Virus record (IMG/VR): IMGVR_UViG_3300045988_164134
Length of the DNA: 62,626 bases
DNA from: a virus
Strand: one strand, 5' to 3'
The stretch's first letter is position 1; each line of letters opens with the position of its first letter. The position numbers and the translations under genes were made by a program. Shown piece by piece: positions 1 to 19,200 of the stretch. The notes below the pieces were generated by a model. The model ran no database searches, was not told the origin of the DNA, and saw nothing but the letters and a program-made list of their open reading frames with translations.

Positions 1-119
1 AAACATGCAAATCTCAGACAAGTCAATAAAAGAATATTCTCGCATTGATAAAGAAAATATTGATATACATGAATTTGCAAAAAAGTGGCTAGGTGTTAAT
101 AAACAAGAGTTGATCCATG
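1..119 (+). repeat. Terminal overlap copy 1 (identical to 62508..62626)
   Basis: Base-by-base comparison of both ends shows 119/119 identical. Confidence 0.95.
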
Positions 120-1072
120 TAGTTGAAACATATTGGGATAACATACTTTTCTTTTTACATGTTATTGAAAATATAAAAGCTAGAGACTCAATAGTAAATG
201 CAATACACATAAATAAAACAGAAAATCCTGTATTGTTTAGCGATTCATCTAAAAAAAATATACAGGAATTAAAGAAAGAAAATATTTATTTTGTTGAAAG
301 ATATATAAAAAGATGGGATACATCAAAGGCGTTTAGAGAATTTATAAGTATAGATGATAAAGTAAAAAACAATACAAATAAAAAAAGCTTTGAACAAATT
401 GGTATTGTTAGCAAAGAAATGAATCACGCCATACCAACGTTTAACGACCATATTCTAGCCAAAGATACATTTTATCGCAGGGCATCTTTTATTCTTCATT
501 TGAATGATATGTTACACATTCAAGAATTAGTGAAAAAAGATACTAGGAAAAGTATTAAAGAATCCAATATCAGTATATATGACCGATATGTACGTGCAAG
601 CAATGCATACATAGAAGCATTGAGAATGGTTGATGAAGCACAAGACGAAAAATGGTTTAAATCTATGCTCGAATCAATGCCGTACTACGAAGAATTTACA
701 GACTTTTACGTTGGTGATTATGAGTATAAAAAAGCTTGTATACGATTGGTTTTGCAAACAGAAACAACGGATTCTAAGCCGACATTATATGATGTGGCAG
801 CAAATGTGGATATAGACGACACAGATGATAGAGGAACTGCAAATATAACTGATACTACAATGCCAACTAAAATATACTTTAACAAACACTATTATAATGC
901 TCCTGAAGTACAAGTCACTGTAAACAGCGGCGTTGGTAATGAAACAGTAACGCCGTATATAGTTAATACAGATGGTATAGACGGTAGTAAACGGTACTTT
1001 GAAGTGGAATTGCGTAACGATTCTAACGAACGAGTTAAAGGGGCAATTTCGTGGATTTCTAAAGGGTGGTGA
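2..1072 (+). CDS. 3' part of a wrap-around tail/baseplate-like structural gene (full CDS = 62215..62507 + 1..1072, 454 aa)
   Basis: The frame is open from ATG 62215 through the junction. The ATG at nt 5 is internal (codon 100). The C-terminus resembles beta-sandwich lectin-like tail tip domains (weak). The stop TGA at 1070-1072 lies just before the fibre-gene SD. Confidence 0.6.
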   Translation, partial: NMQISDKSIKEYSRIDKENIDIHEFAKKWLGVNKQELIHVVETYWDNILFFLHVIENIKARDSIVNAIHINKTENPVLFSDSSKKNIQELKKENIYFVERYIKRWDTSKAFREFISIDDKVKNNTNKKSFEQIGIVSKEMNHAIPTFNDHILAKDTFYRRASFILHLNDMLHIQELVKKDTRKSIKESNISIYDRYVRASNAYIEALRMVDEAQDEKWFKSMLESMPYYEEFTDFYVGDYEYKKACIRLVLQTETTDSKPTLYDVAANVDIDDTDDRGTANITDTTMPTKIYFNKHYYNAPEVQVTVNSGVGNETVTPYIVNTDGIDGSKRYFEVELRNDSNERVKGAISWISKGW

Positions 1073-1076
1073 TATA

Positions 1077-1934
1077 ATGCAAGAATTTTCAGCATTAAAT
1101 ATGACAGAAAATGCCGTTACTGCCATACAAAAAATGCAGAAAAGTATAGAAAGCACAGCGTCTAACTTTAGTGGCGTAGCGTTTCCAACTGAAAACTTGC
1201 AAATAGGCATGCTATGTATGCGTACTGATTTAAACAATAATATATACAAATTAACCTCTCTTGACCCTGCCACATGGGAGCAAGTTGGGGTTGCATCTGA
1301 AACAGCAAGTAAACTGGAAAGTAAAAGAACAATCAAGCTTACTGGAAAAGCGGTGGGAAGCACAACAACAGATTTATCGGGAGATGTATCAATCGAAGTA
1401 AAAGCAGTAACTGCTGATACGGCAAAAACTGCCGATAGTGCAACCAATGCCACTAATGCGACTAATGCGACTAATGCTGATAACGCAAAAAAAGCAGTGA
1501 GTGCAAAAAACGCTACAAACACTACAAAACTAGACCACGATGTCAATATTAACTTAACTGGTGCGGTAACAGGGAGTGCAACAACTAATTTAGCGGATGG
1601 CACACTTAACCTGCAAATGGCGGGAGATGCTAATCAATTTAAAAACATTACGGTCAGTGGTTCACAACAAGGACTTAGATATATAGATGTAGAAACAGAA
1701 CGTGCAGGAGCTGACATTGATTCAAGCTGGACTGAGGGGAGCGGTAATATATCAACACAATACAGACGGTACGAGTGTGTAGCGAATGAATTCCCGGCAG
1801 GAACATATAGCTTGCAAGATATATTACAACGGCTTGTTAATGCGTGTCATAGACACTACGTAAGAGGGATAACGGTAAAAAGTAACTGTATTTGTAAGTG
1901 TAACTGTGCATGTGCCAATAACGATGAAGAATAG
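1077..1934 (+). CDS. Tail fibre protein 1 with (NAT)n repeat and Cys-ladder C-terminus
   Basis: SD AGGGTGGTGA precedes ATG 1077. Fibre-type repeats are present (KRTIKLTGKAVGSTTTDLSGDVSIEV and NINLTGAVTGSATTNL), followed by TADTAKTADSATNATNATNATNADNAKKAVSAKNATN. The protein ends in SNCICKCNCACANNDEE. Confidence 0.75.
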   Translation: MQEFSALNMTENAVTAIQKMQKSIESTASNFSGVAFPTENLQIGMLCMRTDLNNNIYKLTSLDPATWEQVGVASETASKLESKRTIKLTGKAVGSTTTDLSGDVSIEVKAVTADTAKTADSATNATNATNATNADNAKKAVSAKNATNTTKLDHDVNINLTGAVTGSATTNLADGTLNLQMAGDANQFKNITVSGSQQGLRYIDVETERAGADIDSSWTEGSGNISTQYRRYECVANEFPAGTYSLQDILQRLVNACHRHYVRGITVKSNCICKCNCACANNDEE

Positions 1935-2814
1935 TATAAAACTAGGAAGAATATGCATACCACTTGGCATAAGGTGTAATTTATTATGTAGATATTGCTA
2001 TCGAGATATATGCCGAAAAGATATACCTAATAAAGTAAGTAATAAATTTTTATCCTATTTAAAATCACTAGATACTGATAGTTATGCTGTTATATTTAGT
2101 GGTGGAGAGCCATTACTTTACATGGATACAATAAAAAAAATCACCAGTATTCTTCCTAAACATATACACAAAAAAGTAATGACAAACGGCTTGCTTCTTA
2201 CTAAAGAATTGGTGGATTATTTCAATGATAATAATTTCGAGGTACATATATCGCATGATGGGGAACACACAAAAGAATTACGTGGACAAGATGTGTTAGA
2301 AAAGAAATTGCATCTTATAAGAGAAATACGATATTTGCGAATTGTATCGGTTATCAGTAATCACAACACGGATGTCATGAAGGTATATAAATATATACAA
2401 AACAAGCTGAATAGACCGTTTTATTTCGAAGCAAGCCCAATTATCCCAACTGGTTATAATGATGATTTAATTAATGGATTTGATTACGATACATTTGAAA
2501 GAACATTAGCGGAAGTTTTGAGTATACGAAACGAATCACCTTTTGAATGGTATCACAACAAGTCTAGTGGCATGGGATTAAACGTATTATTGGATGGTAG
2601 TATTGTTGGAATGAGTACACTTAATAAATATGGTACGGTATGGGATACAGAGAAAACTATTCGCAGTAACTTCTTAGATAAAGAACACAACCATATTAAA
2701 TATTGTCAGCAGTCTGCGTGTTCCTTAAAAACATGCTATATGAATAAAAGCCTTGCTTGTCAGCACATGTGCAAGATAAATCGTATACGGTACGATATAA
2801 AGAATGAGGTGTAA
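1924..2814 (+). CDS. Radical SAM protein with degenerate/twitch-like C-terminal Cys cluster
   Basis: Motifs CNLLCRYC, SGGEPLL and C-terminal CQQSACSLKTCYMNKSLACQHMC. ATG 1924 overlaps the fibre stop (1932-1934). GTG 1906 is an alternative start. Confidence 0.85.
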   Translation: MKNSIKLGRICIPLGIRCNLLCRYCYRDICRKDIPNKVSNKFLSYLKSLDTDSYAVIFSGGEPLLYMDTIKKITSILPKHIHKKVMTNGLLLTKELVDYFNDNNFEVHISHDGEHTKELRGQDVLEKKLHLIREIRYLRIVSVISNHNTDVMKVYKYIQNKLNRPFYFEASPIIPTGYNDDLINGFDYDTFERTLAEVLSIRNESPFEWYHNKSSGMGLNVLLDGSIVGMSTLNKYGTVWDTEKTIRSNFLDKEHNHIKYCQQSACSLKTCYMNKSLACQHMCKINRIRYDIKNEV

Positions 2815-2816
2815 AT

Positions 2817-3878
2817 ATGATAAACAGAGTTAACTTGATGATGGGTAACAAATGCAATTTCCATTGCCGTCATTGCATACAAAATGATTCAGTAAAAGAC
2901 CAATCCTTAACACTGCCTAATAATGAGGTAATAAAGTACATAAAGCGATTAGCAAACATTCGCCCTAAAAATAAAGGGAAGTTAGATGTGCACTTTTGGG
3001 GGGGGGAGCCGTTAATGTACATGGAAGTGATACAATGCGTCGTGGAAAAAGTAAATAATGCCGAATACACGATCGTCACTAACGGATTGTTACTGGATGC
3101 CCCCATAGTTAACTATTGTAATGAACATGACATAACCGTAGTGCTTAGTAATGACGGCATACATACATCTAAAGTTAGAGGAAAAAACATGCTTGAAAAC
3201 AAACGGTTTATACAGCTGTTTAAACGCCTAAAAAACAAAGCGGTTGATTCCTGTATTACGTCATATAATCAAGATTATTATGCATTGTGGAATTATATAG
3301 AAGCAAAGCTTGGCAAAGATATACCAATATTTCATGAGATGCTTGAATGCACGTGGGATATGCCGAAAGATCTGTATGAGTTTAATTTAGAAAATTATAA
3401 AAAGACAATGGATATGATTGTTGATAATGCATATAAAAAGCTTATACATGGAGAAATAGGCAGAGAGTACATGCTAATTTCAGATACGGCAAACCGCATG
3501 TGTAAAATTGTTGATAACAAACAAGTAGAAGAATATAAATGTTCTCAGATGCGGAATATGGTAAGTATTGATTTAAAAGGCAATGTGTATGCGTGCCATA
3601 ATGCATGTAATGTATTGGGAACTGTAAAAGATGATTGGGAAGTATTAAAAGAACGATATAGCAAATACCTTCAAGATAAAACTCTAGATGATTGCAAGTA
3701 TTGTGAATGGCGTTCGGTGTGTGGTAATGGATGCCCCAATTCATACAATATTTTCCCTGGAAAAGCCATGTCTTGCGAGGTAAAAAAAATATTTATGTCA
3801 GCTTGCATGAGCTTTTTAAAGAAACTACAGGATTCGTTAGAAGACGTGGATATGGAGGATAGTTATGATTGTAATTAG
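2817..3878 (+). CDS. Radical SAM / SPASM-domain protein
   Basis: Motifs CNFHCRHC, WGGEPLMY and the SPASM signature CKYCEWRSVCGNGC (CX2CX5CX3C) with upstream CSQ...GNVYACH. SD GAGGTG lies 3 nt after the previous stop. Confidence 0.9.
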   Translation: MINRVNLMMGNKCNFHCRHCIQNDSVKDQSLTLPNNEVIKYIKRLANIRPKNKGKLDVHFWGGEPLMYMEVIQCVVEKVNNAEYTIVTNGLLLDAPIVNYCNEHDITVVLSNDGIHTSKVRGKNMLENKRFIQLFKRLKNKAVDSCITSYNQDYYALWNYIEAKLGKDIPIFHEMLECTWDMPKDLYEFNLENYKKTMDMIVDNAYKKLIHGEIGREYMLISDTANRMCKIVDNKQVEEYKCSQMRNMVSIDLKGNVYACHNACNVLGTVKDDWEVLKERYSKYLQDKTLDDCKYCEWRSVCGNGCPNSYNIFPGKAMSCEVKKIFMSACMSFLKKLQDSLEDVDMEDSYDCN

Positions 3879-4557
3879 GCGACCATTACAAGAAGGAGAA
3901 AAAAACAAGGTAGAATACAACGTTGATTTAAACAACGATGGCATTATATTTTCTTTTAGCACCACATATATGGGGCAAGATGTAAAAGACAGTGTATCAA
4001 TCCCCTTCAACACGTATAAAGATGTAATCCTGCACTTGTCCTTGCAATGGACACATAAAATAGAAACAAGGTTATATCCATTATACGAATTACAATCACG
4101 CTACAATGTAATTAGTGAAACCAATAACGACGCTTTAGTTCTTGCACGCATATCCATTAATGAAACTTGTGATGACATAGTAATTTTTTTAAACAGCCCG
4201 ACGAACTATACTTGTAAAGTAGCTAAAACGATAGACTGCGAACCCAATACATCCAAGTCAAAAATGATGATGATGTATTCGCCGTATTATACAAAAAGAG
4301 CGGAACATATTCGCAAAAAATGGGATATGATGGCAAATCTTGATATATACGACACAGTTACATATCTTGAATCACAAGTGGACGCATTAACCAAAATTGC
4401 GCTAGGCAATAATAGTGATGACGTTAAAGCGGTATTAACGGCGGCTAATGAACATAGCGTGTTTAATATCAAAAGCAAAGAAAAAATGATTGACGAAATG
4501 CATAAAGATAAAGCGAAAATACGTTCGTTGCAAAAGGAGTATTATGACAAAGCGTAA
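3865..4557 (+). CDS. Hypothetical protein inside the rSAM cluster
   Basis: SD GGAGGA precedes ATG 3865. The gene overlaps the rSAM2 stop by 14 nt and the rSAM3 start by 14 nt. No motif recognised. Confidence 0.6.
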   Translation: MIVIRRPLQEGEKNKVEYNVDLNNDGIIFSFSTTYMGQDVKDSVSIPFNTYKDVILHLSLQWTHKIETRLYPLYELQSRYNVISETNNDALVLARISINETCDDIVIFLNSPTNYTCKVAKTIDCEPNTSKSKMMMMYSPYYTKRAEHIRKKWDMMANLDIYDTVTYLESQVDALTKIALGNNSDDVKAVLTAANEHSVFNIKSKEKMIDEMHKDKAKIRSLQKEYYDKA

Positions 4558-5530
4558 AAAAATTGTACTAAAACTAGGCGGCATGTGTAACTTGCATTGC
4601 AAAAATTGTCATTGTATGCCTCTTAAATTTAAGTATAATCCGGACATTATAGACTGGATAAACAATAATAAAATAGAAGTAATTCACCTTGGCGGTGGTG
4701 AACCGTTTTTGTATTTTGATTTAATTCAAAAAATAGTGCCTAAATTACATGTAAAACAAATAAACGTAACAACAAACGGAACGCTGCTAACTGATGAAAT
4801 GATTAAATTTTGCAACAAGTACAATATACGTGTTGCTTTTTCTTATGACGGACAGAACAGCAAACGTGATCCTGTTTTACCTGATTACGAAAGAATAAAG
4901 AAGTTAAAAAATATTGGTACATCATCTGTTTTTTACCACGGCAATACCAATATACGGCAGATGGAAAACGACTTACATCGGCTTGGTGAAATTTACGATA
5001 TAGATTCATGTAAAAGAACCATCACTTTTTTACCTGCTTTTGTTCATCAAACTAAAAATGCACCCAATAGCGATACCACAAAAGAAGATGCTAAAAGTTA
5101 CATTTTGCAGGTGGGACGTTTATTAGAATTTGGTTTAATGCAGTATGATAAAGAGCAAAAATACTCACTAGGGGCGGCGTTTAATTTTATCCGCCACTAT
5201 TTAAATCACAAGCCATATACGATTGGGTGCAGATGCTGCAATCCCAATAATGTATCATTGGCGATTGATGGGCGCTTTATACTTTGCCCATATGGAAATG
5301 ATTTTGTGGGCGATATATATATAGGTGTAAACTGGGCGGCAGTAGAAGACCACATACCAGATAAGTGTAAAAAATGTGCATTACGTCAATATTGTGGTAC
5401 ATCCTGCGCAGCTCAAATTACGGATAATGAATGTTACATTTTCAGATGTTTGTACAGGCATTATAAAAAACTATTGAAAAAGTACAACATAGACGAAAAT
5501 GACATCCTTAGTTTAGATTTTGATTCATAA
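4544..5530 (+). CDS. Radical SAM / SPASM-domain protein
   Basis: SD AAAGGAG precedes ATG 4544. Motifs CNLHCKNC, GGGEPFLY and the SPASM signature CKKCALRQYCGTSC, preceded by CRCCNPNNVSLAIDGRFILCP. Confidence 0.9.
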   Translation: MTKRKKIVLKLGGMCNLHCKNCHCMPLKFKYNPDIIDWINNNKIEVIHLGGGEPFLYFDLIQKIVPKLHVKQINVTTNGTLLTDEMIKFCNKYNIRVAFSYDGQNSKRDPVLPDYERIKKLKNIGTSSVFYHGNTNIRQMENDLHRLGEIYDIDSCKRTITFLPAFVHQTKNAPNSDTTKEDAKSYILQVGRLLEFGLMQYDKEQKYSLGAAFNFIRHYLNHKPYTIGCRCCNPNNVSLAIDGRFILCPYGNDFVGDIYIGVNWAAVEDHIPDKCKKCALRQYCGTSCAAQITDNECYIFRCLYRHYKKLLKKYNIDENDILSLDFDS

Positions 5531-5544
5531 AGGAGAAGATTATT

Positions 5545-5715
5545 ATGGAAAAAAAACATGTAAACGTATTCAGTGAAAATGGCGAAGTAACAGCAGTACC
5601 TGCATTTGACAGTGCAGAAGAAGAATTGAAACACTATGAAGAAGAACAGAAACGTAAGGAACAGGAAAACAAACATAAAGCACCCGTATTTAGTGAAAAC
5701 GGCGAATTAGAATAG
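5545..5715 (+). CDS. Small acidic 56-aa ORF with duplicated VFSENGE motif (not in ORF track)
   Basis: SD AAGGAGA lies 9 nt upstream of ATG 5545. Translation: MEKKHVNVFSENGEVTAVPAFDSAEEELKHYEEEQKRKEQENKHKAPVFSENGELE. The two 24-nt repeat copies differ mostly by synonymous changes. Confidence 0.5.
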   Translation: MEKKHVNVFSENGEVTAVPAFDSAEEELKHYEEEQKRKEQENKHKAPVFSENGELE

Positions 5716-5723
5716 GTGATTCT

Positions 5724-6101
5724 ATGCAAAACTATCATGATTTGCAAAATACAGAAGCGGCAAATGTATACTTGGATAAAGTCAAAGATAACATACGGAC
5801 AGTTGCAAGTAATTTTAGCGGCACATCATTTCCTACGGATAATCTACAATCAGGAATGTTGTGTTATCGTACAGATGAAAAGAAACTGTACCAATTAACA
5901 AATACATACCCAATTACATGGGAGAGTGTGCAAAGCTCACTCACATTCGATACCACTCCCACAGCCGGTAGCACAAACCCTATTACTAGCGGTGGCGTAA
6001 AGAATGAACTTGATAAGTATGCTAAAAAGACGGATGTTCCGGCTGTTACGGTATCAGGTAATACCATTTCTTTTGGCAGTGTCACCATTGGAGTTGATTA
6101 A
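5724..6101 (+). CDS. Tail fibre protein 2 (short)
   Basis: The N-terminus ASNFSGTSFPTDNLQSGMLCYRTDEKKLYQLT..ITWESV is paralogous to fibre 1. The segment TPTAGSTNPITSGGV is fibre-like. Confidence 0.7.
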   Translation: MQNYHDLQNTEAANVYLDKVKDNIRTVASNFSGTSFPTDNLQSGMLCYRTDEKKLYQLTNTYPITWESVQSSLTFDTTPTAGSTNPITSGGVKNELDKYAKKTDVPAVTVSGNTISFGSVTIGVD

Positions 6102-6707
6102 ATGGCAAAATATATTAGTGTAACGAGAGCAAACGGAGATTTGGAACTTATTCTTCTTGTAGATACGAAAGAATATGGATATAGCTATTTCCCAGTTTTA
6201 TGTTCAGATGGAGTTACTCGGTATGCAGTACTTGGGGAAAGTTCTGATGATAATGTATCACATTTATGGATAACTCAAAACGGCGTAAAAAAATATTTTA
6301 TAAGACAACCAAGTATCACCCCAGCTGTGTACTTAACGATGGGTAAGTATACAGATATGTACGGATTTTCCAATATCGGTTCTTTAAAATTCGGGGCAAT
6401 CAGCGGCACGTTTACGTACAACAGTAAAACAGTTACCGTCCTAACTTTTGAGTTTTATAACCCGTATGTCGATTTTGTTATGCAAATCGACGGCGAAACA
6501 AGTGGAACTTATAATGCAAATGTCACTCTAATAGACCCTGACGCGAATAAAAAGGGAAGTATATATTTTAGTAACATGTACTATCTGGGGTACAGTAAGG
6601 CATTTGTTGGAGATAATACACTATACAGCGGCGATTTACATGATTTTTTTTCAGCTAGTAACGTCGGGAAGAAGTATGTAATAAAAGTAGACATTGCAAA
6701 ACAATAA
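6102..6707 (+). CDS. Hypothetical protein, possibly the distal fibre/receptor-binding partner
   Basis: Its ATG directly abuts the fibre 2 stop. Beta-rich composition, no motif recognised. Confidence 0.5.
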   Translation: MAKYISVTRANGDLELILLVDTKEYGYSYFPVLCSDGVTRYAVLGESSDDNVSHLWITQNGVKKYFIRQPSITPAVYLTMGKYTDMYGFSNIGSLKFGAISGTFTYNSKTVTVLTFEFYNPYVDFVMQIDGETSGTYNANVTLIDPDANKKGSIYFSNMYYLGYSKAFVGDNTLYSGDLHDFFSASNVGKKYVIKVDIAKQ

Positions 6708-6737
6708 TTAAATAAAAAAATATAGGAGCGTGATAAT

Positions 6738-6986
6738 ATGCAAGAAAAAGCACGGAAAATTGTAATGGATTATTTTAATAAACATGTTGATGTAACTGAC
6801 CATAAACAACTTACAATGGATGATGTATTTGTTGTATGGTGGTGTAAAACTTTACAGAACTGGAAAGCGTTAGTATCTACCACTGTTTCTGACGGTATGT
6901 ACTACGAAGTTACGCACAACGGTGATAAGAACGAAACTTACGTTGACGTATATAAGAAGTGGGAAAATTACACAGTAAAAGATTAG
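6738..6986 (+). CDS. Small conserved phage protein, unknown function
   Basis: SD AGGAG. The sequence FVVWWCKTLQNWKALVST..DGMYYEVTHNGDKNETYVDVYKKWEN resembles a small family common in Firmicutes phages (from memory). Confidence 0.6.
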   Translation: MQEKARKIVMDYFNKHVDVTDHKQLTMDDVFVVWWCKTLQNWKALVSTTVSDGMYYEVTHNGDKNETYVDVYKKWENYTVKD

Positions 6987-6998
6987 GAGTGGATAACT

Positions 6999-7448
6999 AT
7001 GAAATACCGTAAGAAACCACCTGTAGTTGATGCGTATCAGACTAAAAGAGAGCGTTGTTGCCACTCGCATAGAGGCGATATATTTGCACAACCTGGGGAT
7101 TATGTAATTACTACGATTGATGGAGAAGAATTTCGTTGCAGGCCTGATATTTTTGAAAAAATGTACGAACCGGTTGAAGACGATGGAATGACTATTGGAC
7201 AAGCTATCGAAGCAATAAAGAAAGGCAAACGTTGTGCAAGAAAATGCTGGAACGGTAAGAGTCAATATATTGAACTGGTTAAAAATGTAAGTTACGTTAA
7301 TTCTAACGGCGAAACAGTTAGGATTAATGTAAATAATGAAACAATGGGAAATAAAGCTATAGCTTTTGTTGGTATATCGGGTGTGCAGCTTGGATGGCTT
7401 GCGTCACAGGCTGATTTACTTTCTGAGGATTGGTATATTGTTGAATAA
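6999..7448 (+). CDS. PGDYG-like N-domain fused to a DUF2829 (Tad2-like) domain
   Basis: The N-terminal part contains KKPPVVDAYQ...AQPGDYVITT. The C-terminal part has the DUF2829 pattern: IGQAIEAIKKGKRCARKCWNGKSQYIEL...LGWLASQADLLSEDWYIVE. Confidence 0.75.
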   Translation: MKYRKKPPVVDAYQTKRERCCHSHRGDIFAQPGDYVITTIDGEEFRCRPDIFEKMYEPVEDDGMTIGQAIEAIKKGKRCARKCWNGKSQYIELVKNVSYVNSNGETVRINVNNETMGNKAIAFVGISGVQLGWLASQADLLSEDWYIVE

Positions 7449-7459
7449 TATGAAAAAGT

Positions 7460-8812
7460 ATGAGAAGGACAAATAAACACCAAATAAACAGAGTGTCTTT
7501 TATCGGCATGACAGGCGGAGTGAATATATCACAGGCACCTGAACAAATAGCCGATACAGAGATGCAACAAGCACAAAATTTTATATATGCGATAGACAGC
7601 AAACGACTAAAAGGGCGTGGCGGACTAGGATTACTAAACACGACGGACGAAACAATTCGTGACATGTGGTATGACGTAGACACCAACGTCCTTTTATTAT
7701 TCACAACGACATTCAAGGTATATCGGTATGTTATGGGGCAGACACCCATATATATAGGTAAGCTAAACGGAAGTTATTCGCCAATGTGTGCAAAATTCAT
7801 GGATAAGATATGGATAGCAAGTGGTGGAAAATTGCAGTATTACGACTATACGCAGAATGCAGAACTACAAACGGTTGGTGATTCGCCGACCTGTTCCATG
7901 GTATTTCAGCGATTTTCACGCATAGCGGTATCACAAGACGGCACAAACGGTTTTTATTTGTCGTCTGTTGGTGATGGCACGGAATGGGCAGAGGATACCA
8001 ATAGGGCAGATAAGGAACAATGGTTAGATGTTGGATATGGTGACAGTGGTACAATTACGGCTATTGTTCCGCTTGCGACTGATATTATCTTTATCAAGTC
8101 AAATGGCAAGATATATCAGCTGAGCGGCGATGCAGACCCGAACGACTGGCAAGTAACAGAAATAGCCAATGGCACCGACCCTGCTGGAACGAATTGTGCT
8201 GTAAACATCGGTAATTCCGTCGTATTCTTGTCTATACGTGGCTTGAAGTCACTAGCAGCAGTTATGGAGTATGGCAATATTGCAACCGCTGATATAGGCG
8301 ATAAATTCAACGGTTTAATTACAGAGAACATGTATGAACCAAGATTTTATCACTTGCAACGGCATAGTTTATTGCTGATACGACCAACTAGCGATTATAG
8401 CTATTTTGTAGCGTATAACTATCAGCTAGGGAGTGCAACAACGCTTAAATTCAATATGGATATAGACGCTATATGTGAAACGAACGATGACATATTGGTA
8501 TCGAGTGAAAATAAGATATATCAGTGGGATGATAGATACACAGATGATGACGGCAAAAAGATAGAGTATGTGTTACAGCCCAAAGCGACCATGGGTATGG
8601 AACAGATGCTCATGAAGGCAATAGATACTAAATTTTCGTCAGACTATTCCGGCAAGGCAACTGTTCAAGAAGGTACCTTGAAAGTATCTGTACCAACTGA
8701 TACAAGAAACAAAATCAAGTGTAATCACTCAACGGACTATATGGATATAACAATTACATCCAATGATAGGTTTATCGTAGACCACATTATGGTAGAGGTG
8801 GCAGATTTATGA
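7460..8812 (+). CDS. Virion structural (tail) protein, 450 aa
   Basis: Sits in the tail module with beta-rich composition. The start is uncertain (no clear SD). Confidence 0.55.
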   Translation: MRRTNKHQINRVSFIGMTGGVNISQAPEQIADTEMQQAQNFIYAIDSKRLKGRGGLGLLNTTDETIRDMWYDVDTNVLLLFTTTFKVYRYVMGQTPIYIGKLNGSYSPMCAKFMDKIWIASGGKLQYYDYTQNAELQTVGDSPTCSMVFQRFSRIAVSQDGTNGFYLSSVGDGTEWAEDTNRADKEQWLDVGYGDSGTITAIVPLATDIIFIKSNGKIYQLSGDADPNDWQVTEIANGTDPAGTNCAVNIGNSVVFLSIRGLKSLAAVMEYGNIATADIGDKFNGLITENMYEPRFYHLQRHSLLLIRPTSDYSYFVAYNYQLGSATTLKFNMDIDAICETNDDILVSSENKIYQWDDRYTDDDGKKIEYVLQPKATMGMEQMLMKAIDTKFSSDYSGKATVQEGTLKVSVPTDTRNKIKCNHSTDYMDITITSNDRFIVDHIMVEVADL

Positions 8813-9271: not shown

Positions 9272-9418
9272 ATGGGTAAAAAGTTTGTAGACCATGGGAA
9301 ATACATAGAATTAATATTAACAGGAATTTGTTTACGTGATAAGTTATACGCCACATTAGAAAAAAATATAAACCAAATAGCCGCGATAGAAAAATCTATA
9401 AAAACGGGGGTGATTTGA
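9272..9418 (+). CDS. Small 48-aa ORF (not in ORF track)
   Basis: Fills the gap between 9267 and 9418. Its TGA overlaps the next ATG (TGATG). Weak SD. Confidence 0.35.
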   Translation: MGKKFVDHGKYIELILTGICLRDKLYATLEKNINQIAAIEKSIKTGVI

Positions 9419-10533
9419 TGTCAAAAAAAGGTGGTGGCAGCCACACAACAACTTACACACCAAGCCCAGAAGAGAGAGCGTTACAAAACGAAGAATTACA
9501 ATATATACGTCAAATCAAACCAAATGCGTTTAAATTAAATGATGTAGCAGGTAACCTGCTATATAATTCATTAGGCGATACGAAAGTAGACTATAATCAG
9601 CTAATGAATGATGCAATTAATCAAGTTAAATGGGGACAACAGGGAATACGCAACTTAGTTGCCGGCAACATTCCATCCAACTATCAAACGGCAATGGAAA
9701 ACAGCATTAAGAGCGGCGTACAAAACAGCATGGGTAATTTACTCAGTGATTTAGGAAACCGTGGTGTAGTCAATTCGAGTGTGATGGATACGGGACTGAA
9801 AGGTATTAGTGACAGTGCTTCAAATGCAATGGCACAGAATTGGAGTAATACCGTAAGCCAGTTACAGTCATTGTATGGCAGTGGCATCGATGCAGCTGGT
9901 CAAGGCACGGCAAATGCGGCAGCAGCACAGGAAGCAGCACAGCAGCCTGCACTTAATTTATGGAATGCGTCGCTAGGATTAAACGGTGCTACAACAGGAG
10001 CATTATCAGCTATTGGCGGTAAAGGCACAACGACAACATCTACAAGTGGCGGCGGTGGCTTGTTCGGTGGTATCCTTACCGGGCTGGCTAGTACCGCCTC
10101 TATTTTCTGTTTTGCGCCAGAAACAAAGGTACGACTGGCGGACGGATCCGACGTTCCGATTACCGACGTCAAAGTTGGGGATAAAGTGCTTTGTCCGCAT
10201 GAAGATGGCACGGAATCTGAAGAAACCGTCCTGCATACCCTGGAACCTCGCTATAGCGACGTATGGAACCTCGTATGCAAAGATGGTGTAGACGATCATT
10301 ATGTCATGGCTACCTTGACACAACCGCTTCTTACGGAGGATAACGGATTTGTCGAAATCAGTGATATGACACTGGGAACGAACCTCAAAGGCTGCGGTAA
10401 AATCGTTAATATGGTATACGCCGGCGAACGCAAGGTATACGACCTGCATGTTTCCAGGGACAATAATTACTATGCAGACGGCTTCATTGCTAAAGGTGGC
10501 AGTACCGACAATTGGGTAAAGGAGGGTAACTAA
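9418..10533 (+). CDS. Internal virion protein with C-terminal Hint (Hedgehog/intein-like) autoprocessing domain
   Basis: SD GGGGGTGA. A Gly/Thr-rich linker is followed by CFAPETKVRLADGSDVPITDVKVGDKV ... VYDLHVSRDNNYYADGFIAKG. There is no terminal HN and no C-extein. Confidence 0.8.
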   Translation: MSKKGGGSHTTTYTPSPEERALQNEELQYIRQIKPNAFKLNDVAGNLLYNSLGDTKVDYNQLMNDAINQVKWGQQGIRNLVAGNIPSNYQTAMENSIKSGVQNSMGNLLSDLGNRGVVNSSVMDTGLKGISDSASNAMAQNWSNTVSQLQSLYGSGIDAAGQGTANAAAAQEAAQQPALNLWNASLGLNGATTGALSAIGGKGTTTTSTSGGGGLFGGILTGLASTASIFCFAPETKVRLADGSDVPITDVKVGDKVLCPHEDGTESEETVLHTLEPRYSDVWNLVCKDGVDDHYVMATLTQPLLTEDNGFVEISDMTLGTNLKGCGKIVNMVYAGERKVYDLHVSRDNNYYADGFIAKGGSTDNWVKEGN

Positions 10534-13280: not shown

Positions 13281-16200
13281 ATGGCACTCAACTATCTCGA
13301 TAAAGCCGCTTGGGACGCTGGCGTATATAAAGATAAGGGTAATGATGACGACACGCAACAGGATACTTCTTCTGAGGATTCCGGATATTCGGCGTCTGGC
13401 ATATTGAGCGCCGCTAAAAATTTCCTCAAACACCCATTCCAGGGCATGGGTACTGTCATTGCACCTAATTACACCCCTCGCCCCCTCGACGACAGCGTGT
13501 ACTCGGATATTCCGGGTACACCCGTTGCCAGTGGGCAGTTCGGGGAACTGGAAGACGAAAGCGTCCGCGATGAACGCATGAAGGATTCTGCCGACTACAT
13601 GGCGGCTAACTGGCCGCGTCTGTACGGCGGATTCGTTGCGGCAGACGAAGGCCTGGCTAACGTCGTCGGTGGTATCCAGAACGCCGTTGGCGGCGGCAAT
13701 GGTATCTTGAATAACGTACAGCGCGCCGAAGAAGGGATGCAGGATTATCGCGAACAGTGGAACAACGAGTACGGCGACAGCTATTTCCTAAACCCGAATA
13801 AGTTTGCTACGGACGTTGGCTCCGGTATCGGCTCGACCGTGCCTATCATGGCACTGTCGGCCCTCATGCCGGGCGCCGCCGTCGCAGGTGGCACACGTGC
13901 CTTGACGTCGGCTTTATCCCGTGCAGGGTTAGGCCGTCTTGCTATGTCGAAAGCCGGGCAGGCCCTCATTGCAGATACTGTCCGTTCGATACCTACATCA
14001 AACTTAGCAGACTCCCTGTCTGAATACGGGACCGTCGTTAATGACATGATGCAGAACGGTATGAGTGAAGATGAAGCACGGCGCCGGGCTATCCCGATGT
14101 TCTTCAAGAACATGGCCCTCGATACCTTCACGGTACCTCTTGAATTAGGCGTCATGAAAGGCGGTAAGGGGATTGCGACCGGACTGTTAGGCCGTAGTGC
14201 CGGGGAAGGCATGGCAAAAAGTATCGCCAAAGGCGCGGCCCGTACCGGCATGTTGGCAGGGGCCAGCGGCCTTACGGAAGGCTACCAGGAAGGCGCCCAG
14301 AACGCCCTGGAAAATGACGTGGAAAGCAACCGCGACGGCGGGTGGTACAATCCCTTTACCTGGACTAAGGAAGATTGGGAAGCGGCCCGCGGCGGTTTTG
14401 TCGGCGGCGCTTTGATGGGCGTCCCTGGCAACGTGGCGGCCGGCTTCCATCCCGAAGCAAGACAAGCCCCACTTAGTGCGGAATCCCAGGAACAGGCACA
14501 GAGCATCAAGGATACACTCAGTCACGGCAAACCGAAGGGCATGAGCAACGCCGCGTATAATGCCTATATCGAATTAGCCAATAGCGGGAACCCCGACCTC
14601 ATCAAGCAGGCCGCGTCGTCGCTTGAATCGTTCCAGCAATCGCAAGAAGGCTCCCAGGAAAGCACGGATGACGCCGCCACAGAAGCTTATAAGGATTATG
14701 AAACCTATGACCAGAAGCAGGAAATCGAAAACTTCCTCAACAATAATACGGTTGAGCAAATCGGCGGCGAAAAGAATTTTAACTGGCTCATGGGGGTATT
14801 GCGTAACGGCACGCCGGAAGAAGTGCAGCATGCGTATGATACCGTTATTGCGGCTGAAAAGGCCACGGCCGAACAGGAAGCCAAGAACCGCCCGGCAAGT
14901 GGCGGCGGAAGCATGTCGCCGAATACCGGCAATGCCATGGTTAATATTGTTATCCAGGCGGCTAATGATTCCGGCGTAGAACCACGTCTAGGCCTGGCTA
15001 TTGCCGCCCGTGAAAGCGGCGGGGATGACGTCAATGCCATTTCCATGCCAGAACCTCATGACGGCATTTATGGTATCATGCAGGCCCAGGAGGAAACCGT
15101 TTCCAATATGGGCCTTGACTCCCAGTATCCAGACTGGAAGACGGACCCCTATCAGAACGCCATGGTAGGTATGGCAATCCTAAAGGCTAAAATAGATGGT
15201 GAAAACGGCGACGTATGGGCTGGCGTCCGCGATTACAACGGGGCCGGTGAAGAAGCGGAACAGTATCGCCAGTTGGTCAAGAACAACTATGATAACATGG
15301 GTGATGTTGGTGGCGGTGGTAGTGGCAATGTAGAAGCTCCCAGTGAAGCGTTCTATGATTTGAGCGAAGCCATGAACCCGCAGGTAGACGGCATGGATCC
15401 AAACACCATGGCGAAAATGAATCTCCTGGCCCGCGACTTCTATCAGAAGTACGGCCATCGCCTGTTAGTTACGTCCTTGAAACGTAACGGTGACGGCTCT
15501 TCCTATCATGACGAAGGACACGCCTTTGACTTCTCGGACGACTTTCTAGAACAGAACCCGGACGCCCGCGACTGGCTCGTCCAGCAAGGGGAAAAGTACG
15601 GCCTCAAAGGGCTGGACGAATTCTCTCATCCTGTCGCAACGACTGACGGAGGTAACGTCCACTTTACCGACCATGGCGGCCCGGTCCCTGGCGGTGCATC
15701 CGGCGGCGTATCGAGTAAAGTTGCCGGCGATAATGGGCCGTTTGAACGTGAATTAGACCAGGCCGCGCAGGAAGCCAAAAGCGACATGGACAAGATTCAA
15801 GCTCAAAGCGACCAGGCCATGAATGAAATCATGAACGACGACTCCGCCGAAAAGACGGCGCAGGACGCCCAGCAGGACGCAGAGAACGCCCAGAAGCAGG
15901 CTGATATCGGTAATAACCAGACCGAAACGACGCAGACGCAAGGTGATAATACCACGGATGTTAACCAGGTATTGGGTGCTTTGGGCATTACACAAGATGA
16001 CCTTGCCAGGGCGGCCGCGCAGAATATCATTGGTAAGTTAGACGATAACATCGACCCGAACGACCCTAAATCTATAGACAAGGCAATACGTCAGGCTATA
16101 TCTGCTATGACACCAGATGAGGTTAGGGGAATCGTAAATCAAGCTAAAGGCCAGCAAAAAGCGCCGTCCGCTACACCCGTACCCAAGGCCCAGCAACAGA

Positions 16201-19200
16201 CGCCACACGCCCGTTTAGGCCGTATTTTATCCACCTATGACCGCAAGGACCCGAAGTTCAAGGAATACATGAACACCTTCCGTAACGGCACGGAGCAGGA
16301 ACAGAAGAAGCTGGCCGACGATTTACAGACGACGCAGGAACTGGAACGGGCTAATTCCTTGAAGGGCAATCCGCTTACGACTCAGCAAGACCAGAACGCG
16401 CCTCAAAACGCCCCTCAGCAAGCCGTAGAATCTCCCAAACAGCCCGAACAGGTGAATGCACCTGTACAGGTGAAAGAAAGCCTTGAAACGCAAAAGAAGC
16501 GCAAAATCTACCTTGCGAAGAAACAGAAGCTCATGGAACGGGTCCCGGCTGGCAAAACGGTCAAGGTACATGCCAGTACGAATGACGCCGGATTCGATGC
16601 GACGTATAAGATTGTCCCGGCCGGTGATATTACTGCCAGCCACGACATGAATTACGCCGTGAACGACCTCTACCCGGCAGAATATCAGCCGCGCGACCGT
16701 AACCGTCCTCAGATGCGCGGACAGGTGGAAAAGATGACGAAGGGCATGAAGCCGGAACTGCTGGCAGAAAGCCAGTTCGTCAACGAAGGCGCACCCGTTG
16801 TCAACAACAGCGGCGTCGTCCTTAACGGCAACGGCCGTGTCATGGCTGTCCAGAAGGCCTATAAAGGACTTACGGACGCACACAAGAAGAGTGCCAAGGC
16901 CTATAAGGACTATCTCGTTTCCATCGCTCCGTCGTTAGGTATTGCCCCGGAAAAGGTACAGAGCATGGACCATCCTGTATTGGTACGGCAGGCGGCCGAC
17001 GACGCCGATACCAGCGCTATCATCAACAGCACCGAAGGCGGCGCGAAGTTGGGCGGCGCAGAACAGGCGAAGGCTGATGCGGATAGACTGAAACTGTCCA
17101 CATTAGAACGATTCGCCGATAACGGCACGGGCGAATTCATGAACCCCTCGAACCGTGAATTCAGAAGGGCCGCCGCAAGTGATGTATTCAGCGATGCAGA
17201 AGGCAACTCCGTATTCAATGATAAGGGCGATTTGTCGCCGACAGGGGCGTTTAGAATCCGCAACGCTATCTTTGCCAAGGCCTATAACGATAACTACCTC
17301 TTGACTCAGCTCAGCGAAGCGACGGATAATAACAGCAAGAACATTATGAACGCCATGATTGCTGCCGCGCCGGAAGTCGCCAAGGTCAACGAAGGTATCA
17401 AGAACGGCACCTTGTATCCCGATTATGATATTTCCGACGTCATCACGAAGACGGCCAAGACTATCATGTCGCTCCGTAATGAAGGCAAACCGCTGTCCTT
17501 CCACTTGCAGGAAACGGACCTGTTCTCGCAAGGGGAATCGGAGGCCGAACGACTCGTACTTGAATTCATCGAACGCAATAAATTCAAGAGCCGGACCATT
17601 GCCGATATGTACAAAGGGGCTTGCGACCGTATCTTTGCCGTCGGCAGTCCGAAACAATCCAAGCTGTTCGACAGTAAGGAAGCGCCGCGTATCAGCCTTG
17701 AAAACATCATCTCGAACGCCATCCAGGAGGTAGAACATGGACAATCGTTATTCGACACCACAGAAGAAAAGCCAGCCGAAAAAACTGTATCCGAAGTACC
17801 AGATAATCGACAGGCCGAACCCGCCGGGAGTGGACGCGTACATCAACAAGAAGCTGGCAGAGTACAGAGCCAAGAAAAAGAAGGGAATGAAGTAGATGAA
17901 AAGAGCAAGCAAAGTGACCATGTCGACGCCGAACCTCAGCAAACTGAAAGTAAAGACAAGGAAAGCACCCATGCCGAAGAAGGTTCCCAAGGTGACGTAC
18001 AAGAAGAAGTAAGTAAATTCCATAATGTACTGGATGACGAAAAATCAACGCCTAAACAGATTATAGACGCTTATAAAAGTGTCGTTGATAAAGTCATCGC
18101 AAATGCCAACGGAAGCCGTAAAAACGCCAAAATAGGTGATAAAATCGTAACCGACGAATACCAGTCTTTGACTAATTCCAAGCATTGGGGCGCATTCATG
18201 AACGAAGACGGCGGACGGAACTGGCACGAAGTCGCTACCATCAATGCCGACGCACATAAGACATTGCGTGCTATCATCAAGACTGCCGGGAAAGAAACAG
18301 CTCCTAAAGCGGAACAGTCGAAAGAAACGAAGCCGGCGGAACAGCCCAAAGAAAAAGCCGGATTCACTGACGATGAAATCAAGACTCTCACGGATAGAGG
18401 CTTCAATCGCTGGACGAAGAAACTGTCTAATGGCAAGGTGATGGACCGTCTCTATATTAAACCGGAATATTTAGGGCTTGAACTTACCCGGTACAAATCC
18501 GGCAACATTTCATCTGCAAAATTCAACGGTGAAACAATCAGCAACTCAGAAGCAAGGCGTATAGAAGGTACGAAATGCTATGTAGACGTTGCAACAAAAG
18601 AAGTCGTATGTGACAGGGATGACCTGAAACAGGCGGCACAAGAAGTCGTTGACGATGCGTTGTCAAAAGAAAAATCCCAAGTCTTCGCACAAACAGAAAC
18701 AAAAAAAGCCGCCCCAAAGGACGACGTTGTTGTTACTGGCGATGAATTTGGTGAATATAAAGACCTAAAAGAATTACGAGATAAAGCCAAAGCTTATTAC
18801 AAAAAACATTTACAAGGAACCTATGTACAGAATCCCATATTGGGAACTATTCAATTAGAAAGTAATCGCGTTGATTTTACTCGTTCTGGGATGGGCAAAA
18901 TGGTGGCCACCAGTGCCAAAGAACATAAATTGCTTTTAGTGGCACATTTAAAAGAATTGATTGAAAATGCCGATTCTGTCACAACCAATGGGAATGTAAA
19001 GAACAAAAGAAACGCTTCATCCTACTCTTATTTGCATTCAACAGCAATTATTGAAGGGAAGAAGCAAAATGTCATCATTACTATTTTTACTGATGTAAAC
19101 GGTAATAAGTATTACAATCATACCTTGCCAGATGAAGAAGGTACTAATAAAAAAGAAGCCCTATCAGTACCTCCGGCGCAAGCTACCAAAAATAGTAACG

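Follow-up and report, generated by a model that had tools for sequence, protein, structure and literature searches.

A cysteine ladder at the C-terminus of a phage tail fibre as a putative substrate of radical SAM/SPASM enzymes encoded immediately downstream

QhpD installs Cys-to-Asp/Glu thioethers in QhpC, the gamma subunit of quinohemoprotein amine dehydrogenase, and a radical S-adenosylmethionine (radical SAM, rSAM) enzyme that makes a thioether between the beta-carbon of Asn and Cys in an NxxC motif is also known. To our knowledge, this NxxC beta-thioether is found only in short streptococcal peptides with a single motif. PapB joins Cys to Asp or Glu residues that necessarily lie C-terminal to the Cys, and it also accepts the C-terminal carboxylate (PMC12373016). 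Here we describe a locus in which related chemistry may be directed at a virion protein. The stretch analysed, IMG/VR virus record IMGVR_UViG_3300045988_164134 (62,626 nt, hereafter the window), comprises the entire genome, about 62.6 kb, of a phage whose portal and capsid genes are of the SU10 type. It encodes a tail-fibre protein ending in a ladder of alternating cysteines, followed by genes for three predicted rSAM enzymes, two of them with a SPASM domain. Judging by the genomic association and the enzyme family, it is very likely that the tail is the substrate of these enzymes, and it is probable overall that they cross-link it into a C-terminal knot; by analogy with the known systems, the chances that the ladder cysteines are joined by thioether chemistry appear to be even. 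Neither such a fibre ladder nor rSAM modification of phage structural proteins was described in the literature searched, a search that was incomplete. As far as the searchable literature shows, maturation of the type known from peptides that are made on ribosomes and modified after translation (RiPPs), applied to phage tail fibres, would thus be both widespread and undescribed.

In the fibre, a shaft rich in Ala, Thr and Asn and a C-terminal domain lie between an N-terminal anchor that other fibres also have and the ladder tail, and the translation ends in ...VKSNCICKCNCACANNDEE. An earlier note on this DNA had reported five Cys at i,i+2 spacing encoded at 1887-1913, seven residues from the C-terminus, with an rSAM start codon at 1924 lying inside the last codons of the gene. 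Both points hold. TGT codons for the ladder cysteines are located at 1887, 1893, 1899, 1905 and 1911 (tail ...YVRGITVKSNCICKCNCACANNDEE), the end of the protein (...GITVKSNCICKCNCACANNDEE) closes with a stop codon at 1932-1934, the last Cys is the seventh residue from the end, and a 296-aa open reading frame (ORF) opens at ATG 1924, overlapping the fibre gene by 11 nt. The distribution of the remaining cysteines is also as the note had it: of eight in all, five are in the ladder, two lie upstream of it (ECVANEF and NACHRH) and one is in the N-terminal GMLCMRTD. Since the number of five-Cys i,i+2 runs expected in the window is about 1.6e-5 (Cys frequency 1.55%, 18,402 aa of plus-strand ORFs), the ladder is not a product of chance. 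In an alignment with 10 homologues, down to 53% identity, N270, C271, C273, C275 and C277 are invariant, and H258-x-H260 upstream of the ladder is invariant as well.

Several lines of evidence concern the nature of the protein itself. Its N-terminal ~70 aa (NFSGxAFPTxNLxxGMxCxRTD) are found in common with proteins that carry Pfam PF21882 Gp53-like_C or PF21939 Gp10_C, which are tail-fibre and baseplate C-terminal domains, and also with gp028 of Achromobacter phage JWF and many ladder-bearing fibres of other phages. The gene lies 3' of the SU10-type portal and major capsid protein genes and 5' of the lysis genes, and C-terminal halves have been exchanged between close relatives of the fibre. 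Homology, the place of the gene within the structural module and the swapping of C-terminal halves make the assignment as a phage tail fibre a reasonable one. In an AlphaFold2 (AF2) monomer model the fibre reaches a predicted local distance difference test score (pLDDT) of 47 overall, with a helix at 246-258 and a strand at 260-269; residues 274-285 have no confident structure (pLDDT <50), and the tail is predicted to be unstructured. The model was too poor to place the ladder in a fold.

In the close clade of the window fibre (window, L004-L013 and L015-L016; 51-99% identity), each ladder fibre is followed by rSAM1, rSAM2, a gene for an accessory protein (p230) and rSAM3, usually together with a gene for a short acidic peptide (p56; Table 1). 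The ladders of this clade have 3-6 Cys and end in (G)NDEE or NDGE (for example, SNCNCKCLCSGNDEE, SNCDCKCDCKCDCTGGNDEE and YNCNCNCNCSTNDGE), the (G)NDEE ending of the window fibre being kept among them. The number of CxC units shifts quickly among close relatives: the fibres P0005, P0006 and P0007 are near-identical over their N-terminal two-thirds, yet have ladders of 4, 6 and 5 Cys. Two kinds of close relatives differ from this arrangement. In P0011 and P0012, the N-terminal 146 aa (87% identity) and the upstream genes match those of ladder fibres; the C-terminal half differs and has no ladder, and their loci contain no rSAM, no p230 and no p56. In P0002 and P0008, a Hint-type domain abuts the ladder (...NCNCNCNCDCGGT followed directly by CFVKGTFVLMADG), and the loci have a single rSAM, orthologous to rSAM2 (44% identity), and p56. 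The close-clade swap comprises one contiguous block from fibre residue ~147 to p56 and may have been a single event, which would also be expected if the ladder domain and the rSAM genes merely formed one recombination cassette with no enzyme-substrate relation.

The association extends far beyond the close clade. An enzyme-first search, in which an alignment of rSAM2 orthologues was compared with IMG/VR, gave 80 loci. In a multi-rSAM clade (L015-L023), a Cys-rich fibre C-terminus (for example, NCNCKCACNCTDNDEE, YNCNCNCSDTDE and NCNCRCRCDNDHGR; degenerate NCDCCGSDS in L021) lies upstream of the first rSAM in 9/9 loci, directly so in eight and at ~1.2 kb in L023. In loci L051-L094, whose rSAMs are 22-31% identical to those of the window, a same-strand ORF ending in a ladder (YNCNCDCNCC, TNCNCNCACACNCACSTDGGG and TNCNCNCNCNCNCACDCNC are examples) was found 0.2-3.3 kb upstream in 34 of 44 cases, and in four more the contig ends there. 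Many of these ladder proteins carry the N-terminal anchor of the window fibre; the others are proteins of 60-130 aa, sometimes in tandem.

A ladder-first search, blind to rSAM genes, was made against IMG/VR with a DNA pattern for NCNCNCxC, a choice that biases figures on ladder composition towards Asn. It gave at least 120 loci; the counts from this search that follow refer to the matches listed. In at least 59 ORFs, each of 90 aa or more, the ladder lies no further than 25 residues from the stop codon, and these represent 45 distinct tails. In all 24 cases where the ladder gene has 4.5 kb or more of sequence downstream, a same-strand rSAM homologue follows within 4.5 kb, at gaps of 1-2513 nt, and no evaluable ladder gene was without one. 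Of the 35 ladder loci with less than 4.5 kb downstream, 21 have an rSAM; the 14 without it all have less than 2.5 kb. Pattern matches other than C-terminal ladders have no rSAM, except L133, a ladder-Hint fusion, and L131, where a C-terminal region of another kind comes after the ladder. The ladder gene comes first, with start/stop overlaps or gaps of 1-5 nt in several loci, and the association holds down to ~23% rSAM identity and across fibre architectures and hosts (Firmicutes, Negativicutes, Proteobacteria).

These results bear directly on the earlier note, which had proposed that the tail is a modification core attached to a full-length structural protein. It had set beforehand, as a test, the covariation of the ladder with rSAM neighbours, and had named ladders without such neighbours as evidence to the contrary. 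Ladder and rSAM genes covary in both directions, which supports the proposal, and the contrary case did not appear among the 24 evaluable ladder genes of the matches listed. The pairing persists while the fibre body, the intervening genes (0 to 2.5 kb, encoding various accessory proteins), the number of rSAMs, the morphotype and the host all differ. Linkage without function would not be kept over such a distance, and the simple cassette explanation is therefore very improbable.

The ladder also appears to be tied to the end of the protein. It was found in 87 distinct C-termini of other phages; 0-7 residues follow the last ladder Cys, and 36 of the 87 distinct proteins end at that very Cys. Internal ladders run straight into the N-terminal Cys block of a Hint-type domain, and they do so in at least three fibre backgrounds unrelated to one another: ...CDCGGT is followed by CFVKGT in P0002/P0008, ...CNCNCS by CFPAGT in JWF gp028 and ...CSDSDGS by CIIEGN in L217, and L133/L210 have a junction of this kind as well. 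A Pfam Hom_end_hint match lies at the ladder/Hint junction. In P0002, the PF05203 match of 32.1 bits equals the cut-off and covers residues 289-324 only (~36 residues), with SGEH and VNGY blocks recognized by eye. Cleavage by the Hint domain at its own N-terminus, which we infer for these variants, would put the ladder at the C-terminus. Since an intein C-terminal splice junction is not apparent, the domain is not a splicing intein. Together, the tail sequences, those with Hint domains included, imply that the ladder needs a C-terminal position.

The composition of the tails may provide some clues to the chemistry. The residues between ladder cysteines are Asn (63%), Ala (15%) and Asp (13%), and the first Cys is almost invariably preceded by Asn, although the search pattern biases these figures towards Asn; the set of loci obtained rSAM-first has a like Asn tendency. 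At least two Asp/Glu follow the last Cys in 13 of 16 distinct sequences at loci with two or more rSAMs, compared with 0 of 29 at single-rSAM loci. The sequence before the ladder is of two types. A helix-HxH type, seen also in L017, L019, L021, L022, L023, L078 and L217, goes mostly with short enzymes (290-360 aa) that have no N-terminal extension, and a beta-strand-like type, G-x-x-V-x-L-R...(T/N)NC, goes with 450-aa enzymes that have an N-terminal extension of ~70 aa.

All three window enzymes carry the CX3CX2C motif and exceed the Pfam Radical_SAM (PF04055) cut-off of 29.5 bits (rSAM1, CNLLCRYC, 44.3 bits; rSAM2, CNFHCRHC, 38.4; rSAM3, CNLHCKNC, 35.8), which places them, as judged from motif and profile, in the radical SAM superfamily. 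The SPASM signature of seven Cys (CX9-15GX4C, CX2CX5CX3C and a downstream Cys) is present in rSAM2 (C242..C260; C293-C306; C320; TIGR04085 36.4 bits, cut-off 27) and in rSAM3 (C229..C248; C275-C288; C297). It is lacking in rSAM1, whose degenerate C-terminal domain has five Cys (CX4CX4CX7CX3C) without the canonical motifs. The best curated-profile matches are peptide- or protein-crosslinking SPASM maturases, namely PapB, QhpD, SCIFF/CteB and CcpM, and rSAM2 aligns with the PapB profile over its full length (96.5 bits, 1.8e-27). Alignments to N-terminally extended maturases begin at profile position ~80-110 (~97-99 for SCIFF); the N-terminal region in which CteB-type enzymes have their RiPP recognition element (RRE) is therefore missing from the window enzymes. 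Of the three, rSAM2 is the paralogue retained in single-rSAM loci and the nearest to the rSAMs of distant ladder loci.

Membership in any described family is another matter. The PapB family (NF047865) has a cut-off of 340 bits, and rSAM1 and rSAM3 reach 57 and 45.9; the QhpD profile (TIGR03906) gives 49-62 bits against a cut-off of 453. The earlier note had compared the tail with SCIFF and sactipeptide substrates. The likeness of a Cys-rich C-terminal core beside rSAM-SPASM genes stands, and the membership does not: a SCIFF system is recognized by more than 425 bits with TIGR03974, an N-terminal RRE region and a precursor of ~45 aa with six Cys, and the window enzymes score 52, 39 and 30 bits and have no N-terminal RRE region. 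Similarly, a RiPP pathway is defined by a short precursor made of leader and core and by genes for leader removal and/or export, whereas here the precursor is a full-length fibre, and profile scans of the ORFs between positions 5 and 6707 found no protease or transporter family. The logic of such pathways, the obligatory co-occurrence of core and modifying enzyme, nevertheless seems to apply, with rSAMs at 24/24 evaluable ladders among the matches listed and at none of the ladder-less homologues.

The tail is regarded as the substrate because the enzymes belong to the clade of thioether and cross-link maturases and because their partner invariably has a thiol array at a flexible C-terminus. 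The scheme that we infer covers tail modification, thioether chemistry and acceptor residues, and also what the paralogues and p230 do and how the phage gains. Translation of the fibre and rSAM1 would probably be coupled through their overlap, and the ladder NCxCxCxCxC with the acidic ANNDEE would be modified by the phage's own rSAM/SPASM enzymes, encoded immediately downstream. This would take place in the host cytoplasm, which is too reducing for disulfides to form. The enzymes would abstract hydrogen from carbons of neighbouring residues, and thioether bridges would then connect these carbons with the thiols of the ladder. Among possible acceptors, the beta-carbons of the interleaved Asn/Asp would be the most likely and, in the window clade, also Asp/Glu in the acidic tail; the (NC)n ladder amounts to successive N-x-x-C units that overlap, and the Cys-then-acid geometry of PapB matches the order of ladder and NDEE. 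In this scheme rSAM2 would be the core enzyme of all ladder loci, making the bridges from Cys to Asn/Asp beta-carbons, and rSAM1 and rSAM3 would be clade-specific additions that accompany the acidic tail and add bridges to it. The p230 protein would be a non-enzymatic accessory, perhaps a docking or chaperone protein standing in for the N-terminal RRE region that the enzymes lack. Located 12-17 residues upstream of the ladder, the helix-HxH segment may be a recognition ('leader-like') element, a trimer metal site, or both. The product would be a compact polycyclic knot at the fibre C-terminus, resistant to reduction and to protease. A bolder generalization, tentative and on balance doubtful, is that phage-encoded rSAM/SPASM cross-linking of virion proteins is widespread and turns (NC)n ladders into stacked thioether rings, most ambitiously with links among all three chains that would form a covalent, redox-inert clamp at the tip of the tail fibre, made in the cytoplasm; in this reading, Hint domains would be removable caps in some lineages and extra rSAM paralogues would stitch on an acidic tail elsewhere.

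A number of observations weigh against this scheme. First, a trimeric metal site would likewise fit the invariant HxH and the alternating Cys. In trimeric phage fibres and spikes, T4 gp37, T4 gp12 and P2 gpV among them, metal ions are coordinated by HxH motifs, and C-x-C repeats are typical of metallothioneins. The ladder could thus be a structural metal or disulfide element of a trimeric tip, with Cys facing the three-fold axis and an HxH collar, and the rSAMs would serve some other target: the FSENG peptide p56, another virion protein or a small molecule. Second, within the close clade p56 covaries with the rSAM module as well as the ladder does: all close relatives with rSAM genes have it, the single-rSAM Hint variant among them, and the relatives without a ladder do not. 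Its role may be that of a second, clade-specific substrate, an accessory or a cofactor-like partner. As the true substrate it was rejected, since its covariation is limited to the close clade and it was not found in any of the distant ladder-rSAM loci, whereas the ladder-rSAM link extends to ~23% rSAM identity. Furthermore, many ladder proteins have no HxH, the 60-130-aa ladder proteins and the unrelated fibres have the ladder and the rSAM alone in common, and the gene order points to coupling of the two. A ladder serving only as a metal or disulfide element is thus rather improbable; the metal knuckle and the disulfides that the earlier note gave as alternatives are possible additional properties, which alone do not explain the obligatory rSAM neighbour.

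Third, every curated maturase family scored far below its cut-off (PapB, 96 vs 340; SCIFF, 52 vs 425), and the nearest solved relatives by sequence differ in chemistry. They are 8VPO, to which a paper on a radical SAM cyclopropyl synthase refers (PMC10878394), and then CteB (PDB 5WGG), a thioether former. Therefore, the reaction is not fixed by similarity. Fourth, 29 of the 87 ladders have no Asp/Glu at all, and Cys-to-carboxylate links are therefore not universal. Fifth, the correlation of acidic tails with rSAM number (Fisher 8e-9) ignores shared ancestry. Sixth, in a gut clade (L024-L050), rSAM relatives of ~340-430 aa, 25-30% identical to rSAM2, sit behind Gly/Ser/Glu-rich and mostly Cys-free tails (for example, ...SGSGGSAGEGSGGEGN) of ORFs that end at ~5750-5990. 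Tails such as SGEGSGGEGN and EYEGSSGEGSGGEGSGGE are Cys-free, and a few have Cys (SSCGSEGGCGGGEG). The enzyme family is therefore tied to C-terminal tails generally, not strictly to thiols, which suggests that the gut clade is a sister system with a different tail chemistry.

The enzymes could accordingly act on the ladder with another chemistry, such as formation of formylglycine, as in anaerobic sulfatase-maturating enzymes (anSMEs), of dehydroalanine or other Cys derivatives, C-C cross-links or epimerisation, and the modified tail could then be a reactive or adhesive tip. The occurrence of another chemistry among the nearest relatives (8VPO), the Cys-free tails of the gut clade, the GenBank label 'anaerobic sulfatase-maturating enzyme' of the JWF rSAM and a gene resembling 2-oxoglutarate (2OG)-Fe(II) oxygenases (a weak, sub-cut-off match) between ladder and rSAM in some distant loci are all consistent with this possibility. 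The anSME annotation itself was rejected: TIGR03942 gives 46 and 41 bits against a cut-off of 349, and the C/S-x-P/A-x-R motif is absent from the tail SNCICKCNCACANNDEE. Moreover, the top profile matches are thioether formers, thioether peptides typically have an invariant array of several Cys donors, and the pairing of acidic tails with extra rSAMs suits Cys-Asp/Glu chemistry. Non-thioether chemistry on the ladder is therefore considered unlikely.

The features of the window are collected in Table 1. The gene for p230 is conserved as far as JWF gp029 (hhalign probability 91%, E 1e-6) and has no family match in Pfam, PHROGs, NCBIfam or PDB sequences. A role as RRE or enzyme was rejected; its AF2 model (pLDDT 79) gives a weak fold match to SPP1 gp22 alone (probability 0.96, E 0.05, template-modelling score 0.32/0.50). 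The C-terminus of rSAM2 (3830-3878, plus strand) is an acidic Cys-containing tail, VDxEDSYDC(N/D), conserved in the rSAM2 orthologues of three-rSAM loci and missing from the single rSAM of the Hint variant L001.

Table 1. Features of the fibre-rSAM region of the window
Feature	Position	Strand	Description
Tail-fibre gene	1077..1934	+	285 aa from ATG 1077; TTG 999 is an alternative start
Pre-ladder module AGTYSLQDILQRLVNACHRH	1797..1856	+	predicted amphipathic helix ending in invariant HxH (H258, H260; 1848-1856)
Asn/Cys ladder N-C-I-C-K-C-N-C-A-C	1884..1913	+	five Cys at i,i+2; proposed core with donor thiols
Acidic tail A-N-N-D-E-E and stop codon	1914..1934	+	proposed acceptor residues
rSAM1	1924..2814	+	296 aa; CX3CX2C at residues 18-25; overlaps fibre gene by 11 nt
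rSAM2	2817..3878	+	353 aa; full SPASM set (CX12GX4C, CX2CX5CX3C, downstream Cys)
p230 accessory protein	3865..4557	+	230 aa; N-terminal beta-sandwich and helices; invariant DIYxTVTYLESQVDALT
rSAM3	4544..5530	+	328 aa from ATG 4544; full SPASM motif set
p56	5545..5715	+	56-aa acidic peptide; two invariant FSENG motifs, AVPAFD; directly after rSAM3
Second fibre-like gene	5724-6101	+	125 aa; N-terminal anchor NFSGTSFPTDNLQSGMLCYRTD in common with ladder fibre; then 201-aa ORF 6102-6707

In relatives, the equivalent of the second fibre-like gene encodes 240-422 aa and is followed by a gene for a Gp10_C-domain protein. Further downstream on the plus strand, the 82-aa ORF at 6738-6986 is a DUF6275 protein, the sole part of positions 1-8000 matched in GenBank phages by blastn, which thus revealed no close relative there. 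The L004 orthologue of the 149-aa ORF at 6999-7448 has a precomputed Pfam Tad2-like (PF11195) match, and a single plus-strand ORF at 13281-25247 encodes a giant protein of 3988 aa. A 372-aa protein (9415-10533, plus strand), conserved in relatives (373 aa), has a C-terminal Hint or pretoxin-HINT domain at residues ~228-359, with Pfam scores just under the cut-offs. Hint domains elsewhere in the structural region of this phage group are a possible source for the ladder-Hint fusions.

Some of the distant loci have additional genes. In L096, L099, L152 and L208, a protein of ~260 aa with a GWKYFPG-like end is encoded between the ladder gene and the rSAM, often together with a ~185-aa protein that has a weak match to 2OG-Fe(II) oxygenases (PF13759, 21 bits, which is under the cut-off); a partner of the Asn/Asp hydroxylase type in such loci would be of interest. 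On two jumbo-phage contigs (275 and 175 kb; L046 7075-7938 and L093 8843-9736), rSAM relatives adjoin very Cys-rich proteins with 19-28 Cys in CxxC or CQSC-type repeats instead of CxC ladders. Tandem small proteins of 60-110 aa with the N-terminus MAxKVxxTTVxxN... are found directly upstream of a 450-aa rSAM in L157 (1595-2084), L208 (reverse strand, 5926-6542), L056 (5293-5795) and L064 (1889-2565); some copies end in a ladder and others do not. These tandem families bear a closer resemblance to classical precursor peptides.

The system is found in three cultured phages, judging in one of them from the rSAM gene, and is therefore directly testable. In Achromobacter phage JWF, gp028 (483 aa, annotated as Hom_end-associated Hint; ...VKPRQNCNCDCNCNCS followed by CFPAGTMVLMADG) is followed by gp029, the p230 homologue, and gp030, a 454-aa rSAM, and Achromobacter phage 2-1 has a homologous rSAM at the matching genomic position. 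ORF048 of Ralstonia phage RSP15, annotated as 'putative side tail fiber', ends in ...SMSNTNCQCGN and is followed by two accessory genes and an rSAM. A prophage on Phascolarctobacterium-labelled contigs has a fibre with ...AGTYTLQNLLQGLVSKSHTHGSVNVYSNCNCNCSDSDGS followed by CIIEGN..., then two rSAMs, a p230 homologue and a third rSAM. This is the sole clue to the host, and scans of GTDB representative genomes with the rSAM2 and p230 alignments gave no relative.

If the tail is cross-linked as proposed, a viral structural protein would receive RiPP-style chemistry installed by enzymes that the virus itself carries. Phages of podo-, sipho- and myovirus-like form, with Gram-positive as well as Gram-negative hosts, have the system. 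Such chemistry would represent a new kind of virion maturation and would account for the 'radical SAM' genes that recur, unannotated, in the structural modules of phages. Moreover, it would point to a route by which receptor-binding tips assembled in a reducing cytoplasm gain a disulfide-like stability. Should the enzymes tolerate other proteins, compact enzymes acting on a C-terminal tag of ~10-25 residues could become tools for stapling protein C-termini.

Comparison with known systems shows several partial parallelisms. PapB, the enzyme of freyrasin, is likewise an rSAM-SPASM enzyme acting on several Cys donors with carboxylate acceptors C-terminal to them (PMC12373016); its substrate PapA is a short leader plus core with CX3D repeats, recognized through an RRE. 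In the window, by contrast, the core would be the tail of a 285-aa virion protein with CxC spacing, served by three paralogous enzymes and p230, with no protease or exporter among the ORFs between positions 5 and 6707. SCIFF/CteB also combines a Cys-rich C-terminal core with an rSAM-SPASM thioether former, CteB being the second-closest solved structure. The window enzymes, however, have no counterpart of its RRE-holding N-terminal region, and SCIFF precursors are peptides of ~45 aa with a Cys pattern unlike the ladder. QhpD and QhpC, whose profile TIGR03906 is among the top matches, offer the parallel of a protein substrate that stays part of a functional complex and is not a secreted peptide, although QhpC is no phage structural protein but a small subunit dedicated to a bacterial enzyme. 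The NxxC beta-thioether peptides resemble the ladder in that it can be read as overlapping N-x-x-C units in which Asn dominates between and before the Cys. Self-cleaving Hint domains of the bacterial intein-like (BIL) or Hedgehog type find their likeness in P0002/P0008, JWF gp028, L133/L210 and L217, where the ladder is followed by a C[FI]xxG(T/N) domain; here the cleavage is predicted, and the Pfam match at the cut-off covers only the first ~36 residues. Finally, the invariant HxH in the C-terminal part of the presumably trimeric window fibre recalls the trimeric fibres and spikes with HxH sites, a resemblance of motif alone that many ladder proteins do not have.

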